A stretch of 32,000 nt of DNA from Pyrobaculum aerophilum str. IM2 (GTDB lineage Archaea > Thermoproteota > Thermoprotei > Thermoproteales > Thermoproteaceae), in contig NC_003364.1 of the NCBI RefSeq assembly GCF_000007225.1, positions 840,001-872,000 on the forward strand, given 5' to 3'. The position numbers and the translations under genes are program-made. The notes beneath the pieces are model-generated. The model worked only from the letters and a program-made list of their open reading frames with translations, was not told the DNA's origin and made no database searches. Shown one piece after another: positions 20,787-25,492 of the stretch; position 1 is the stretch's first letter, and the number at the start of each line of letters is the position of its first letter.

Positions 20787-20906
20787 GTAACTAACCGCAA
20801 TTCATAATTTATAAGTTACTCCTATAAAAGCGCCATCCTCTCACCCCCACGGCGCGCCGAATTTCCTCGGTAAGCCTCTGGGAGGGGCACTTTTACGCAC
20901 GTCGCC

Positions 20907-21165
20907 TTAACTGTCGCCGCACCTGTGGATCACTTTAATACAGTCGTCTACTAGCTTTATCTCCGGCTTTAGGTAGACGCCGTCGGGCGTATCGAATACG
21001 TAAAACGCAATTTTGTCGCCCACTTTGCAAATTGCTCTCAAGTCGGCCACGAAACACAATATCGGCTTACCCCGCCACTCCCACCAAAAGGCGCGCCTGA
21101 GGGAGTACTCGCCGATTAGCAGTTCGGCGTACCTCTCCCTACTCCGCTATTATTACCTTAGCCAT
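20907..21165 (-). pseudogene. small gene disrupted by a frameshift after codon 8
   Basis: The ATG at 21165 gives MAKVIIAE and then a TAG (21139-21141). The adjacent frame is open from 21146 and reads ...ERYAELLIGEYSLRRAFWWEWRGKPILCFVADLRAICKVGDKIAFYVFDTPDGVYLKPEIKLVDDCIKVIHRCGDS*, ending at the TAA at 20907-20909. Confidence 0.35.
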
Positions 21166-22317
21166 TTCGCACATGCCGTGGTGAGGCCCTAGCCGCCTTG
21201 CCCTCCTAGCCCGGCGGGATGGGCCACTTAAACCACTTGCGATACCACTCTTTCAACGCGGCCAGGCTCTTGATTTCCATACTACGCATTCCTCTACCAT
21301 TTCCCTCCCTCCGCTTGTACACGGCTAGACGCCCGCCTACGCCTCATAGGGCTATCTGTTACATATCCCCCCTCGCCGCGGCCACTGCGCTGGCCCGTCT
21401 GGGTTTTATGAACGCCGGGCTGACTGCGTAGTCCGCGAGGAGGCGCCGAAAAGCACACTGCAGTGCGTAATCACGGAGGCCCCTTCGGCGAAAACAACCG
21501 CGTTGCCCACGGCCAAATCCACTGCAAATACGCCACTGCGTCTTCAACGGCCATTTTCAACTCCCACGTCCTCAAGTCGGGCTATCCCTACACCTCTCCG
21601 CCACGTACTTCGCCATTGCCAGCGCCTTTGCCACCGCATAAGCCGCAGTTCTGATGTCCACTGGCTTTGGCAACAGGTGTGAGACAGCGCAAGATTCATA
21701 AAACTCGCATTTGCCCTCGGCAGTCCACCTAACGGCAACTGGCGGAAGGCTGTCCTCAAAAGAGGGCATTCCACCAAGAGGCCCAAGGCCCTTGGAAGAC
21801 GGCGCCCCGGAGGTATGAGGCGATAAGATGCGGCGTCTCTCCCGCGAGATCCCCGGCGGGCCTGCCGGAGGTCTTCTCTAAATACTCGCAAATTTCCCCC
21901 AGCCCTCGGCGTACAACATCTAGCTCTCTGTAGTGGAGGAGGGCGGGAGCCCCGGCCAAAAGACGGGAGACGCAGAACGGGCGGGGGTGTGATTTATCAG
22001 TAACGTTTAAGCTAATGCAAAAACGTAACGCTGATAGTATAGCTTCCCGCGAAAGCAGATTGAGGCAAGTAAAACTCGCAGTTATGCTCACAACGTTGTC
22101 CAGAGGACGGCGGTGGAGGACAGCGGGGCGTACAGAACAAGCCCCATCACAAGTCTCCCAGTCCACACGCCGCCACGTTGAGCAAGCGGTGTCTGTAGCG
22201 AAGGGGGCGGTAGGGTCAGAGAGGCGCCAGATGCAACGCTTATGGACAAGCCGCGACGTATAGGGTTTTTGAAGCGGCCAGTTGTAAATTTTTATTACGC
22301 CTTCTTAATATGTTTTT

Positions 22318-22809
22318 ATGGAGAAGCACGTGGAGAGAGAGGCGGTTATAAGAGATACTCTCCACGACTTTTCAATAGAATACGTAAAGGCTTTGGCCGA
22401 GGTGTTCGGGTGGAGAGTAGTCACGGCGCCTGCCAACGCGCCGGGGCCAGACGTGGTTATTGAACACGCCGTTGGGGAGAAAGCCGTTATGTTTATTGAG
22501 TCAGAAGTGGGCCACGACACGGGGAGCTCCCAGAAGTACTTCAAAAAGCTGTCTGAAAGGCTTAGGCCTTTAGTCGAGGAGTATAGGGCAAGGGGCGTGG
22601 GCTACTTTGCCCTAGTGATAATCGCGAACGCCCCCAGGAGGCTGACAAAATACCTCAGAGAGAATAGAAAAGAACTTGAAGAGGCGTTGGGCTTTAAATT
22701 GGAAGAGGGAATTACTGCCTTTGTAATACCCGTCTTGTTAGTAAAAGAAGTACTGCCGGCGGTATTTGTAAGAGCGCTTGGAGTAGCGGCTAGGCTTGCG
22801 CCGGGGTAG
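22318..22809 (+). CDS. PD-(D/E)xK-like (restriction-endonuclease-fold) protein, stand-alone
   Basis: 163 aa. The motif order E-V-x-G-W ... GPDVVIE ... AVMFIESEVGHD parallels the C-terminal domain of the next gene (EVGRW ... RVDAAF ... FAVVEVHVGGD). An AAATTTTTATTA box lies about 26 nt upstream of the ATG. Confidence 0.5.
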   Translation: MEKHVEREAVIRDTLHDFSIEYVKALAEVFGWRVVTAPANAPGPDVVIEHAVGEKAVMFIESEVGHDTGSSQKYFKKLSERLRPLVEEYRARGVGYFALVIIANAPRRLTKYLRENRKELEEALGFKLEEGITAFVIPVLLVKEVLPAVFVRALGVAARLAPG

Positions 22810-22810
22810 C

Positions 22811-22862
22811 CTTTTTGTCAAACGCCGCAAATAGGCCCGCGCCCGCCTCTTTTCTAGAGGCG
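22811..22862 (+). terminator. possible terminator: a T5 tract followed by a 7-bp hairpin
   Basis: A TTTTT run starts 2-3 nt after the stop codon. CGCCTCT-tttct-AGAGGCG at 22844-22862 forms a perfect 7-bp stem containing T4. Confidence 0.3.
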
Positions 22863-22927
22863 TCTCCGGTTATTACAGCGCCGATGGGCTGTGCGTAAAG
22901 CTAATATTCACCTAGCCGTACATTTAC

Positions 22928-23806
22928 ATGCCGGAGTACTGGCTCACCATGTTAGACGAGGAGAACTTCAAGTACACGGTGGAGAGGGGCATTTACGGCC
23001 TGCCCGAGAGCGCCAGCGGATTGGCCCAGTTGATAAAGCCCGGCCATAGGCTGGTGGCCTACGTAATGAAAAAGGGGTGTAGAGAGCTGTGCCAGTCCTT
23101 CGCCGCAGTGCTTGAGATCGCTGGCGAGTGGCGCAAATAGACAAAGCCCATCTGGCCAGACGAGAGGGAAAAGGGCATAGTCCTATACCCTTGGGTAGTC
23201 GACGTGAGAGTTCTGGCCAAGGGGAGAGTGGAGTTCTCCAAAGTGAAGGAGAGGCTGGAGGAGCTGTTGGGCAGAGGCCTAGACGCCAAGAGGCTTAGGC
23301 TGTACGCGCTTTACTACGCAAAACGCCCGCTGCCGCCAGGCGTCGGCGAATTTTTAGAGGAGGAGTTGCGGAAGGGGCAGGTAACTGAGGCGCGCGGGGC
23401 TGAGTTCACACACGAAGACCTCTTAACGGCTGTTGTAGAAGTTGGGCGTTGGCTGGACTTTAGAGTAGAGAGAGAGTACCACATTGACAACTTCAGAGTA
23501 GACGCCGCGTTTTTCAAGCCGCCTAGGGCCACTCCCTTCGCCGTAGTTGAAGTGCACGTCGGCGGCGATATTTATAAAGACTTGGCCGCTCTTAAACACG
23601 CCTATGACAGATACGGCTCTAAGCTGATATACGTTCTGGCGGGCGATGAGAAGGCGGTGGCCAGGCTTTTAGACGGCCAAGGCGCCTTCCACGAGATAAG
23701 AGAACACGTGGCGGTGATAAGGGCGGAGGAGCTCCTCAAATTGCGCGAGGCCCTGCGGCTGGATGGCGCCAGGAGGCTTTTAAAATGGCTCGAATTGGTA
23801 AAATAG
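22928..23806 (+). pseudogene. EVE/PUA-like domain fused to a PD-(D/E)xK-like nuclease domain, interrupted by one in-frame TAG at 23138-23140 (pseudogene or recoded CDS)
   Basis: The listed ORFs 22928..23140 and 23204..23806 share a frame, and reading through gives ...LEIAGEWRK*TKPIWPDEREKGIVLYPWVVDVRVLAKG.... The N-terminus YWLTMLDEENFKYTVERGIYGLPE...IKPGHRLVAYVMK...PIWPDE...YPWVVDV follows the EVE/PUA-like pattern. The C-terminus HEDLLTAVVEVGRWLDFRVEREYHIDNFRVDAAFF...FAVVEVHVGGDIYKDLAALKHAY is nuclease-fold-like. Confidence 0.6.
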
Positions 23807-23841
23807 CCGTTAGGCTTATGGGCCAATGACCAGTTTTACGC

Positions 23842-23991
23842 GTGAAATGCCCCTACTGCGGCTCTGAAAGCGTGGAGGCTGTGAAGAGTTGGGAAATGCC
23901 GAGGATGGGCTACCGCGTTACTCACTACCGCTGTAAAAACTGCGGCGGCCTCTTCAACCACTACGTGGGGAGGGGAAAGAGTTCGTGCTAA
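23842..23991 (+). CDS. unlisted 49-aa zinc-ribbon protein
   Basis: The GTG start gives MKCPYCGSESVEAVKSWEMPRMGYRVTHYRCKNCGGLFNHYVGRGKSSC. Its two CxxC pairs (CPYC, CKNC) are spaced like a zinc ribbon. It lies 35 nt downstream of the EVE-nuclease gene on the same strand and is below the 60-aa track cutoff. Confidence 0.5.
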   Translation: MKCPYCGSESVEAVKSWEMPRMGYRVTHYRCKNCGGLFNHYVGRGKSSC

Positions 23992-24811
23992 GAGTAGGGC
24001 CCAGGAGGCCTCCCGCAGGCGCAACCAGATAGTGCCTTTCTTGAATATTTATATAACTATACTCTTACGCCTCTAAAAATCTTTAGCCATTGACTGATCT
24101 CTTGTAGCCCCTTGGGCACCAACCAAGTCACCTTTGAGGGATGTTGTCCGTATTGGATCTCAAGCTGGGAAATGCCTGTGGTAATGTTGTAACTAAGATT
24201 CATTACAGATTGCCAATTCATATCAACGTGGCAACGCGCCTCTCGGCCAGCCTCATCGGGCTTAAAACAGTAGAGGCGCCGTCCGACGAAGAGATTTACA
24301 AGGCGGCGATACGCGGACCCTCCGCTGTTTCCCGCATGCGCTTTACAATGGCCGAGGACTACGTCTACAGAAACATCACCGTGGAGAGGGGGCCGCTGGA
24401 CGCTAGTGGAAGCTATCGCCCGCGTTGTGGATCTGAGGTACGAGTTCGTGAAGGGAGATCAGCCCGTGGATCAGTGAGCTGGAAAGGACTGCCGTCCGCG
24501 CATTATCGTAGAATATGAAGTGCACAGCGGCGAGAGGAAACAGTTCAAATGGAGTGGTACTGGAAAAAGCGACGGGTAAAGAGACGCAAAACAATAATGA
24601 CGCACTATTACGAAACAGCGCGGCCGACGGTCAAAGACGACGCAGAGGCCGCCGTGTTGAAGGCGCTGACTGGCAAGGCGAAAAAAGGCGAAATGCACCT
24701 CCTCGCCGACCAGTTTGACGCCCTGCGCCGGTTCAAACCGCTAAAAGACGCCGTAGACCAGCGGGGAGGGGGAAACCGAAATAATTATTTACAACTCCTA
24801 ACGAAAGCGCC

Positions 24812-25492
24812 ATGGGCTATGTCTCAAACAAAGCTAAAATCTTGGCGAAGTACGTCTCCCCAGATGCGTACATATACGGGCCGTCAGTCATCGGCGCCGG
24901 GAGTTTTATTGACGCCGCCGTGATCGGCTATCCCGCCCGCCAGAAAATTCTTAGCGGGTTTAAATCCCCTGACGAGGTCAGCAACGGGGCGAGGATAGGG
25001 GAGGAGGTCATTATTAGAAGCGGCGTTGTGATATATGAAGACGTGGAAATAGGCGACAGGGCCGAGTTTGGACACGGCGTTTTAGTAAGAGAGTTAACAA
25101 GAATAGGGCGCGGGGTGAGAATCGGCACCAGCGCCATAATAGAGCGCGATGTTAAAATAGGCGACAGGGCGTGGATTCAGTCTATGGTGTACATCCCCAA
25201 CGGCACTGTTATAGAGGAGGACGTCTTTATAGGGCCAAATGCCGTCATTACAAACGACAAGTACCCTCCCAGCAAGAGGCTCGCCCCAGTGGTAATTAGG
25301 CGGGGCGCTGTGATTGGGGCCAACGCGACTTTAATAGCAGGTATTGAAGTCGGAGAGGGCGCTGTCGTGGCCGCAGGGGCCGTCGTGACGAGAGACGTCC
25401 CGCCGGGGGTTGTGGTCGCCGGCGTCCCCGCCCGGGTTATTGGAAAGGCGGAGGAGTATATGAGGAAGCGGGCGGCTTACGAGCAGTCGTGA
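24812..25492 (+). CDS. hexapeptide-repeat (left-handed beta-helix) acyl/acetyltransferase
   Basis: It has a repeated [LIV]-G-x-x-x-x periodicity throughout ([31 protein letters not shown]...[44 protein letters not shown]). An AATAATTATTTA box lies about 24 nt upstream of the ATG. Confidence 0.8.

Follow-up and report, generated by a model that had tools for sequence, protein, structure and literature searches.

We describe an islet of three genes in a 32,000-nucleotide stretch of Pyrobaculum aerophilum DNA (contig NC_003364.1, positions 840,001 to 872,000; hereafter the window, whose own numbering is used throughout). The genes lie on the plus strand at positions 22318–23991, and comprise, in order, an open reading frame (ORF) of 163 amino acids (aa), a frame of 292 codons that is open only if one in-frame TAG is disregarded, and an ORF of 49 aa. 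This agrees with a first-pass annotation made from the sequence, all of whose quoted motifs we found. The middle gene joins an EVE (PUA-like) domain to a C-terminal domain (the C-domain) with a predicted restriction-endonuclease-like fold, and the C-domain belongs to an effector family that appears to be uncharacterised. The 49-aa protein is a zinc ribbon, and its link to the nuclease domain is the unexpected result of the analysis. When intact, the middle gene would probably encode a single-chain, type IV-like, modification-dependent endonuclease, with the ribbon as an auxiliary or alternative module and the 163-aa protein as a separate, reader-less nuclease. Chance does not account for the three genes: full-length orthologues exist for the 292-aa protein and 44 homologues, largely from metagenomes of hot springs, for the 163-aa protein, and the zinc-ribbon gene is under purifying selection (ratio of nonsynonymous to synonymous substitution rates, dN/dS, of 0.06–0.23).

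The EVE reader and its C-terminal domain

The EVE/PUA-like pattern that the first-pass annotation had recognised in the N-terminal half of the middle protein proved to be that of a genuine family member. With the stop codon carried by this copy replaced by X, EVE PF01878 matched residues 4–112 above its gathering threshold (34.3 bits against a cutoff of 23, E = 2.8e-8), and the orthologue P0003 scored 47.5 bits against the same model. An AlphaFold2 (AF2) model of the 292-aa protein, built on the orthologue alignment, had a mean predicted local distance difference test score (pLDDT) of 84.7, with residues 1–110 at about 79–94. Comparison of its EVE half with the PDB by Foldseek returned PH1033 (2hd9, E = 9.6e-9, target-normalised template-modelling score, TMt, 0.75), MJECL36 (2p5d, 2e-7) and YTH domains (about 1e-5). 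The whole 292-aa model matched MspJI (E = 6.8e-5 over 337 aligned columns) and VcaM4I (1e-4) in the same database. MspJI has an SRA-like reader and a D...Q-x-K site.

Full-length orthologues are 47–96% identical to the protein of the window: 96% in a metagenome-assembled genome (MAG) labelled P. aerophilum, 72% in P. aerophilum IM2, 69% in several other Pyrobaculum and about 53% in Vulcanisaeta. The aromatic residues W68 and Y87 of the EVE domain are near-invariant, and Y4/W5 are present in most orthologues. The EVE domain also contains an insert (residues 47–55, positions 23066–23092) with a Cys pair, G-C51-R-E-L-C55, that is near-invariant across all orthologues and could be a disulfide or a metal site. 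Further along, at positions 23663–23680, the loop preceding the G-x-F-H-E motif shows a small in-frame deletion: it reads ...LLDGQGAF... in the window and its 96% identical relative, as against ...LLDEALQGAF... in every other orthologue, including that of a 99% identical metagenomic contig (L006).

In the AF2 model the core of the C-domain is alpha-beta-beta-beta-alpha-beta (helix 162–175, strands 179–186, 189–196 and 205–210, helix 215–229 and strand 232–237; pLDDT 84–95). The residues of note are H162, D192 (strand 2), E208-V-H210 (strand 3), K223-H224-A-x-D227 (the helix that follows) and G-x-F-H255-E256. A Foldseek search of BFVD with the 292-aa model returned viral proteins that bear the names restriction endonuclease, PD-(D/E)XK nuclease or Mrr-domain protein (E = 9e-4 to 1.7e-2, probability 0.94–1.0). 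The C-terminal domain had been read beforehand as a PD-(D/E)xK or Vsr-like nuclease core. Of these two, the PD-(D/E)xK-like core stands as regards the predicted fold and the acidic residues; it has no curated profile match, and it is without the canonical Lys. The Vsr-like alternative fell away: it had no Pfam match, and its sole trace was one viral 'DNA mismatch endonuclease' (E = 5.9e-3) among many PD-(D/E)xK matches.

The C-domain family was searched for among 1.84 billion cluster representatives, and the profile found 362 representative proteins at E ≤ 1e-3 and 177 at E ≤ 1e-10. In the family matches listed, the domain lies at the C terminus, except for a few in which it is near the N terminus (for example P0181, P0205 and P0125). 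The N-terminal partners seen in the 143 members scanned were EVE (27), DUF1802 (7), Mrr_N (7), MrcB_N (2), HARE-HTH (2), DUF5655 (2), YTH (1) and, in a few, assorted winged helices; when the N-terminal regions were clustered by BLAST, 53 members grouped with P0003, the orthologue of the window's EVE protein. Such partners are typical specificity domains of type IV restriction enzymes. Literature searches on DUF1802 turned up nothing relevant.

The family signature reads H...G...R-x-D-V-x-W...P...F-E-V-[Q/H/E]-x-x-G-[N/D]...L-K-H-A-x-D-x-W...G-x-F-H-E. At the catalytic positions Asp is present in all of 140 members and Glu in 137 of the 140, and the position of the Lys is taken by Gln (76), His (28) or Glu (22), the residue in the window being H210; the canonical Lys is therefore absent from the family. 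BglII reportedly has Gln at this position and is said to be catalytically competent with it. No Pfam model covers the C-domain. Comparison of 43 isolated C-domains with Pfam gave sub-threshold matches only, the best being Mrr_cat (0.015) and REase_MTES_1575 (0.01), each in single members, and profiles made from 9 and from 43 sequences gave only chance matches among PDB sequences. As the C-domain has neither a curated profile nor a solved structure, current defence-system annotation would miss the family. PADLOC matched none of the three genes to a named defence system, just as the first-pass annotation had been unable to assign one.

The zinc ribbon and the 163-aa protein

That the 49-aa product is a zinc ribbon was proposed at the outset and is borne out. 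It is 80–84% identical to its Pyrobaculum orthologues, and its family has four invariant Cys residues, an invariant Trp, a conserved YY motif and a C-terminal EFVLRV strand (KCPxCG...KSW...CxxCG...YY...EFVLRV). In a Vulcanisaeta MAG (L023:3812–4474) the ribbon continues in frame into the same linker and nuclease domain, occupying the position of EVE, and the same zinc-ribbon–nuclease fusion is found in P0074, a distant C-domain member of 213 aa with about 28% identity in the nuclease domain. That the fusion occurs twice independently argues strongly for a joint function of the ribbon and this nuclease domain. As a gene of its own, the ribbon neighbours the nuclease gene in the window, in L001 (the closest relative) and in L002–L005. 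The complete trio recurs in a distant lineage, L031, where genes for an EVE-like–C-domain protein, the ribbon and a protein of the 163-aa family lie alongside Mrr_cat-TPR and helicase-NOV_C genes. More widely, the ribbon and these nucleases recur beside PglX-like, BrxL-like or DUF1156 methyltransferase genes. Our searches of the literature found no prior description of the ribbon in surveys of bacteriophage exclusion (BREX) systems.

Some of these loci may be described individually. At L042:1071–5893 and L043:3–3165 an operon-like row begins with the zinc ribbon, the stop of which overlaps the start of a gene for a 1216-aa PglX/Eco57I-type methyltransferase, and goes on with a 163-aa family gene and a 140-aa ORF. 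At L019:5001–5509 a 112-aa BrxL fragment comes immediately after the ribbon, the PglX of sister Pyrobaculum loci being deleted. At L062:4381–7692 a MazE/AbrB-like gene of 52 aa, the fusion P0074, a 189-aa BrxL-like ATPase fragment and a superfamily-1 helicase gene follow one another. At L023:569–4477 the zinc-ribbon–nuclease fusion is divergently adjacent to a 1042-aa DUF1156 (COG1743-type) methyltransferase gene; methyltransferases of this kind belong to the BREX-related DUF499/'Hma' systems.

The 163-aa protein is predicted by AF2 (pLDDT 75) to have the topology a-b-b-b-a-b-a-a-b-a, the same ten-element order as the C-domain model, and its acidic residues fall in strands 2 and 3. Its Foldseek matches in the PDB were FokI (2.1e-3, probability 0.99), Hjc, the small subunit of BspD6I, VRR_NUC and RecU, with weak E-values. 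The UniRef name of its homologue in Thermofilum pendens is 'Restriction endonuclease type IV Mrr domain-containing protein'. The family has 22 invariant columns, including E28, G31-W32, P44-D45, E61, E63 and H66, with H16 near-invariant and E61-S-E63 as its motif. Neither Pfam, NCBIfam, PADLOC nor PHROGs holds a family that matched the protein, and IMG/VR holds no relatives of it, so that a viral origin is unsupported. Members of the family have the zinc ribbon close by in four of 41 loci, namely L030, L031 and L047, in all three of which it is immediately upstream and divergent, and L042, where it is in one row with them; the C-domain occurs in two of the 41.

The first-pass annotation had called this protein a paralogous nuclease. 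The restriction-endonuclease-like fold holds as a prediction; the paralogy was overstated. The H / GW / D / E-x-[EQH]-V-G-x-D motifs of the 163-aa protein and the C-domain are in register. Comparison of the two by hhalign gave a probability of 1.9–2.2% (pairwise P of 0.022–0.025), and the real score was 19.6 as against 12.6 ± 2.2 for column-shuffled controls, with one of 60 shuffles reaching it; searches of hidden Markov models against sequences were not significant. We conclude that the two have a common fold and motif layout, specific kinship between them being only marginal.

Lesions, boundaries and variation of the islet

The coordinates of the features are collected in Table 1.

Table 1. 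Features of the islet and of its surroundings, in window positions
Feature	Position	Strand	Basis
PaREP2a C-terminal remnant, upstream boundary of the islet	20907..21059	-	Pfam PF07903, 68.5 bits, profile positions 74–122 of 122
Strain-specific 0.84-kb segment carrying the 163-aa gene	22036..22878		blastn against L001; L001 gene table
Intact stand-alone 163-aa protein, restriction-endonuclease-like fold (predicted)	22318..22809	+	ORF; AF2; Foldseek
EVE-reader/nuclease fusion, 292 codons, interrupted by a nonsense codon	22928..23806	+	Translation; intact orthologues of 291–295 aa in Pyrobaculum and Vulcanisaeta; AF2 model
EVE (PUA-like) domain, about residues 1–115, followed by a helical linker to about residue 155	22928..23272	+	Pfam and Foldseek
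In-frame TAG, codon 71	23138..23140	+	Relatives have TCG (Ser)
C-terminal restriction-endonuclease-like domain (predicted), about residues 158–292	23399..23803	+	AF2 topology; family conservation
Four-Cys zinc ribbon (C3, C6, C31, C34), 49 aa, GTG start	23842..23991	+	ORF; shorter than the 56–58-aa orthologues
G-rich run with a 1-nt deletion in the zinc-ribbon gene	23968..23979	+	DNA alignment with IM2-type and L009-type orthologues
PaREP2b remnants, two ORF fragments with an internal deletion, downstream boundary of the islet	24141..24923	+	Pfam PF07775, 22.4 bits (profile 59–105) and 91.8 bits (profile 436–507 of 512)

ORF calling splits the 292-codon frame at the in-frame TAG into ORFs of 70 and 200 aa. 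Around codon 71 the DNA of the window reads AAATAGACA and that of the closest relative, L001, reads AAATCGACA (AAA-TAG-ACA versus AAA-TCG-ACA). L006, which has the same gene order as the window, encodes Ser at the codon (...EWRKSTKP...), and Ser or Pro occupies the column in all 11 orthologues that cover it. To judge from these alignments, codon 71 is a single C-to-A nonsense change and not a conserved read-through site. The '292-aa read-through product' of the first-pass annotation thus gives way to a TCG-to-TAG nonsense change, as revealed by two close relatives; programmed read-through as the default reading was rejected because relatives have TCG (Ser) at the codon.

The zinc-ribbon gene carries a lesion of its own. 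Its 1-nt deletion swaps the conserved tail ...GKEFVLRVG... for ...GKSSC and a stop codon, and the EFVLRV tail is conserved in distant homologues as well as in the zinc-ribbon fusions. The zinc-ribbon gene of L001 (L001:7003–7103) has a different 1-nt deletion, which also shifts the frame before the EFVLRV tail and suggests relaxed selection in the lineage. Together, the nonsense codon in the EVE–nuclease gene and the loss of the ribbon's tail indicate that the islet is decaying.

The two different ribbon deletions may represent independent decay in two strains or homopolymer sequencing errors. In Vulcanisaeta (L017:4597–5504 and L018:4630–5504) a frameshift has apparently split the gene into two overlapping ORFs, one for the EVE and one for the nuclease half, which adjoin a Csa1-Cas1-Cas2-Cas4 adaptation module.

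The islet lies between a PaREP2a remnant upstream and PaREP2b remnants downstream, so that the ORF-poor stretches on either side, which had been described as decayed, could be identified through Pfam as decayed copies of repeat genes peculiar to Pyrobaculum. Outside these flanks the window is housekeeping in content (PheRS, CstA, an ArsA-type ATPase, an M42 peptidase, a hexapeptide transferase and a nucleoside phosphorylase by Pfam). Given the decayed PaREP2 genes and the housekeeping genes beyond them, the three genes form a small variable islet. Among the 19 window ORFs scanned with Pfam no DNA methyltransferase was found.

Beside the boundaries we note the following. The C-terminal PaREP2b remnant ORF (24549–24923) overlaps the start of the intact hexapeptide-repeat transferase gene (24812–25492) by about 110 bp. 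On the other side, comparison of positions 20842–22036 with L001:1614–3499 shows about 670 bp of the PaREP2a gene to be missing from the window, the blast pieces overlapping at 20842–20984, and a 164-aa minus-strand gene of L001 corresponds to two shorter overlapping ORFs of the window (21544–21891 and 21756–22166), which suggests more decay upstream of the islet. An AT-rich inverted repeat of 25 nt, 80% complementary (22280–22304 and 24772–24796), brackets the three genes and the PaREP2b remnant, and its arms resemble promoter-type A/T boxes. We considered these arms as the ends of a mobile cassette and rejected them; a 10-nt seed match is about what chance would give in 4.2 kb.

The trio is present in the window, as the first-pass annotation had it; it is not a fixed unit. 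DNA identity of the flanking regions between strains is 90–96%, and at the site of the strain-specific segment L001 has instead 2.45 kb with a 350-aa gene and a radical-SAM gene, homology resuming 50 bp upstream of the EVE start codon. L006 has the same arrangement of the 163-aa and EVE genes as the window. Since the closest relative is without the 163-aa gene, the trio is not conserved as a unit.

At P. aerophilum loci of the IM2 type the row runs EVE–nuclease, zinc ribbon, a 75-aa gene, a PglX-like gene of 1239 aa and BrxL, and only the block of EVE and zinc-ribbon genes (22937–24000) is common to these loci and the window. A search of the window by tblastn with Pyrobaculum PglX and BrxL found neither, both being present in related loci only. 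Origin of the trio by simple deletion of PglX and BrxL was rejected, because the order 163-aa gene, EVE, zinc ribbon does not fit it and only the EVE and zinc-ribbon block is shared with the IM2 type. Orthologues of the EVE–nuclease gene occur in other contexts too: with a TaqI-like restriction-modification (R-M) system followed by the zinc ribbon and then PglX; with NOV_C, Hjc and Cas6; and with Csa1-Cas1-Cas2-Cas4. The Pfam gene tables precomputed for the related loci contain neither PglZ nor BrxC. A pattern scan of GTDB representative genomes found only P. oguniense and one Vulcanisaeta MAG. Patchy distribution and varied defence-type contexts mark the genes as accessory and not housekeeping; a trio strictly conserved in a housekeeping setting, an outcome that the first-pass annotation had named as fatal to its proposal, was not what we found.

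Competing readings and known systems

We favour the view that the islet is the remnant of what may have been a small archaeal defence island. The EVE domain of the intact middle protein would take up in its pocket a modified base flipped from the DNA, and the helical linker would join it to the C-domain, which would cut nearby by means of a putative metal site of D192, E208 and H210, the canonical Lys being replaced as in BamHI and BglII. The C-domain would then be a widespread, unannotated effector module that had been joined in evolution to many readers of DNA or of modified bases. The zinc ribbon recurs in company with this module, most likely as an alternative or auxiliary DNA-binding, licensing or regulatory subunit, and in two fusion lineages it stands where EVE would otherwise be. 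The 163-aa protein would be a second, reader-less nuclease-fold protein with a predicted BamHI-like E...PD...E-x-E site, sharing neighbourhoods occasionally with the zinc ribbon and PglX-type methyltransferases. In the window such a system would be decaying, with its nonsense codon, with the loss of the ribbon's strand and with the PglX and BrxL of other Pyrobaculum absent. What the analysis shows directly are the domain identities, predicted folds, motifs, lesions, fusions and neighbourhoods; we infer from them that the intact protein would be an active nuclease, that it would depend on modification, and that the base it reads would lie in DNA and not in RNA. Type IV restriction, already put forward by the first-pass annotation, remains the best account of the locus: reader and nuclease lie in one polypeptide, an architecture that is a published predicted class (PMC7641849).

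Several points weigh against this reading. Searches of Pfam, NCBIfam, PADLOC, PHROGs and PDB sequences found no nuclease profile match for the C-domain or the 163-aa protein, neither family has the canonical Lys, and EVE and YTH domains also read RNA in other contexts (PMC7641849; PMC6765204). These points, together with the fact that the nuclease profiles all fall below threshold, speak for an account in which the nuclease-like domains have no catalytic activity and act in DNA binding, regulation or oligomerisation, or in which EVE reads modified RNA such as tRNA, so that the protein would be an RNA-directed toxin or a housekeeping factor. We regard that account as very improbable. The acidic triad is near-invariant in 140 diverse C-domain members and in 36 members of the 163-aa family; a Lys-less active site (E77/D94/E111/E113) is catalytically competent in BamHI and OkrAI, Glu or Gln at the Lys position being competent in BamHI (PMC3025578); and the partners Mrr_N, MrcB_N and HARE-HTH are directed to DNA. 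Patchy distribution and repeated inactivation, by the TAG in the window and the split ORFs in Vulcanisaeta, speak against a housekeeping role. The TAG and the homopolymer frameshift could, for their part, be sequencing errors. The locus would then be fully functional, as it would be if the lesions were errors of assembly or if the TAG were suppressed or bypassed, for example by reinitiation at the GTG at 23204 to yield a 200-aa, reader-less nuclease. In keeping with this, the ribbon lesion sits in a G-rich run, the 200-aa ORF has a GTG start after the stop, and the rest of the gene is undamaged and 96–99% identical to intact relatives. The TAG is, however, a clean C-to-A transversion outside a homopolymer, L001 has a second, independent frameshift in the zinc-ribbon gene, PaREP2 genes are decayed on both flanks, and we know of no stop-codon suppression system in Pyrobaculum. 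A functional locus is to our minds decidedly unlikely.

Also to be set against our preferred reading are the associations among the zinc ribbon, the 163-aa family and the C-domain, which are a minority, most loci of the 163-aa family being without the other genes, and the adjacency of N6-adenine methyltransferase and BrxL genes, which could mean that the nucleases act within those systems and not autonomously. On that supposition the three genes would supply accessory or effector components to a BREX-related (PglX/BrxL) or type IIG-like system of archaea, the ribbon being a conserved small subunit and the nuclease-fold proteins the cutting or regulatory parts, and the window would hold the leftovers after loss of the methyltransferase core. 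The IM2-type row is consistent with this, and in other Pyrobaculum the ribbon remains immediately upstream of PglX, also at loci where an R-M insertion has come between it and the EVE gene. The ribbon, a PglX-like gene and the 163-aa family stand in one row at L042 and L043; L026 has PglX, BrxL and then, 1.6 kb downstream, the 163-aa family; a PglX-like gene lies near the L030 locus; and the zinc-ribbon–nuclease fusions are followed by a BrxL-like gene (L062) or lie beside a DUF1156 methyltransferase gene (L023). On the other hand, EVE–nuclease orthologues have no PglX or BrxL nearby in L001, L014, L016 and L017, neither gene is present in most loci of the 163-aa family, and PglZ and BrxC are missing from the gene tables mentioned above. 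Moreover, defence genes cluster in islands without functional coupling, and co-location of BREX with type IV systems for complementary protection is documented, to go by the reference list of PMC12839542. We think membership in a BREX-related system unlikely. A broader proposal, which we offer tentatively and with some doubt, takes the zinc ribbon to be a dedicated, previously undescribed partner of two related Lys-less nuclease-fold families, the C-domain and the 163-aa family, forming with PglX-type methyltransferases and BrxL an uncharacterised defence system of Thermoproteota. In such a system the ribbon, in cis or in trans, would be a targeting or licensing subunit, and the EVE-fused form would add the sensing of modification.

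The EVE–nuclease fusion on which our preferred reading centres comes as no surprise, fusions of this kind being a predicted class already, and what gives the locus its value is chiefly the modular nuclease family, which is unannotated, together with the zinc ribbon as its partner. Through the two fusions and the recurrent PglX/BrxL neighbourhoods in hyperthermophilic archaea, the ribbon is a directly testable partner. There has been little exploration of type IV systems in archaea or of their would-be targets, the DNA modifications carried by archaeal viruses, and a thermostable modification-dependent endonuclease from Pyrobaculum could serve epigenetic mapping. The window also illustrates rapid gene turnover, with a nonsense codon, a frameshift and the replacement of a segment between strains.

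Among known systems, the smallest gene invites comparison with Lar (TIGR03655 / PF14354), likewise a small CxxC...CxxC protein encoded next to restriction genes and the best NCBIfam match of the 49-aa protein (E = 8e-5); at 22.9 bits against a cutoff of 39.6, and with generic zinc-ribbon matches of similar strength numerous, this is a lead only. The 163-aa family resembles BamHI in that E28-x16-D45-x15-E61-x-E63 has the order and nearly the spacing of BamHI E77, D94, E111 and E113 (PMC3025578). It differs from BamHI and BglII in having no detectable sequence homology to them, in that FokI, Hjc and RecU are its best Foldseek matches in the PDB, and in showing no sign of a cognate methyltransferase partner. 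With BREX islands the likeness is one of neighbourhood, the EVE–nuclease and ribbon genes standing directly beside PglX-like and BrxL genes at IM2-type P. aerophilum and other Pyrobaculum loci; the window, by contrast, is without this PglX/BrxL core.

The remaining comparisons concern the middle gene. Like Mrr, the C-domain family pairs a reader with a C-terminal effector of restriction-endonuclease-like fold, and seven of its 143 members have the Mrr_N winged-helix reader itself; unlike Mrr, it does not match Mrr_cat (PF04471), with only two of 43 members reaching E = 0.015, and so represents a different effector family. MspJI (4f0q) and VcaM4I/TspA15I (6yex, PMC6765204) also combine a base-flipping reader of the PUA superfamily with a nuclease, and dependence on modification has been demonstrated for PUA/EVE-HNH enzymes (PMC6765204). 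Sequence identity to MspJI and VcaM4I is, however, 10–16%, a high root-mean-square deviation points to a different domain arrangement, and the nuclease of VcaM4I is of the HNH type. There remain the EVE-PD(D/E)XK fusions, which Bell, Wolf & Koonin (2020, PMC7641849) list as putative type IV restriction endonucleases. The family of the window differs from that class in being without a Pfam model and in having E-x-H/Q/E and not E-x-K in its predicted nuclease; it shares with the class an N-terminal EVE domain and a C-terminal domain of restriction-endonuclease fold in one polypeptide, a defence-island context, and fast-evolving, patchy occurrence.

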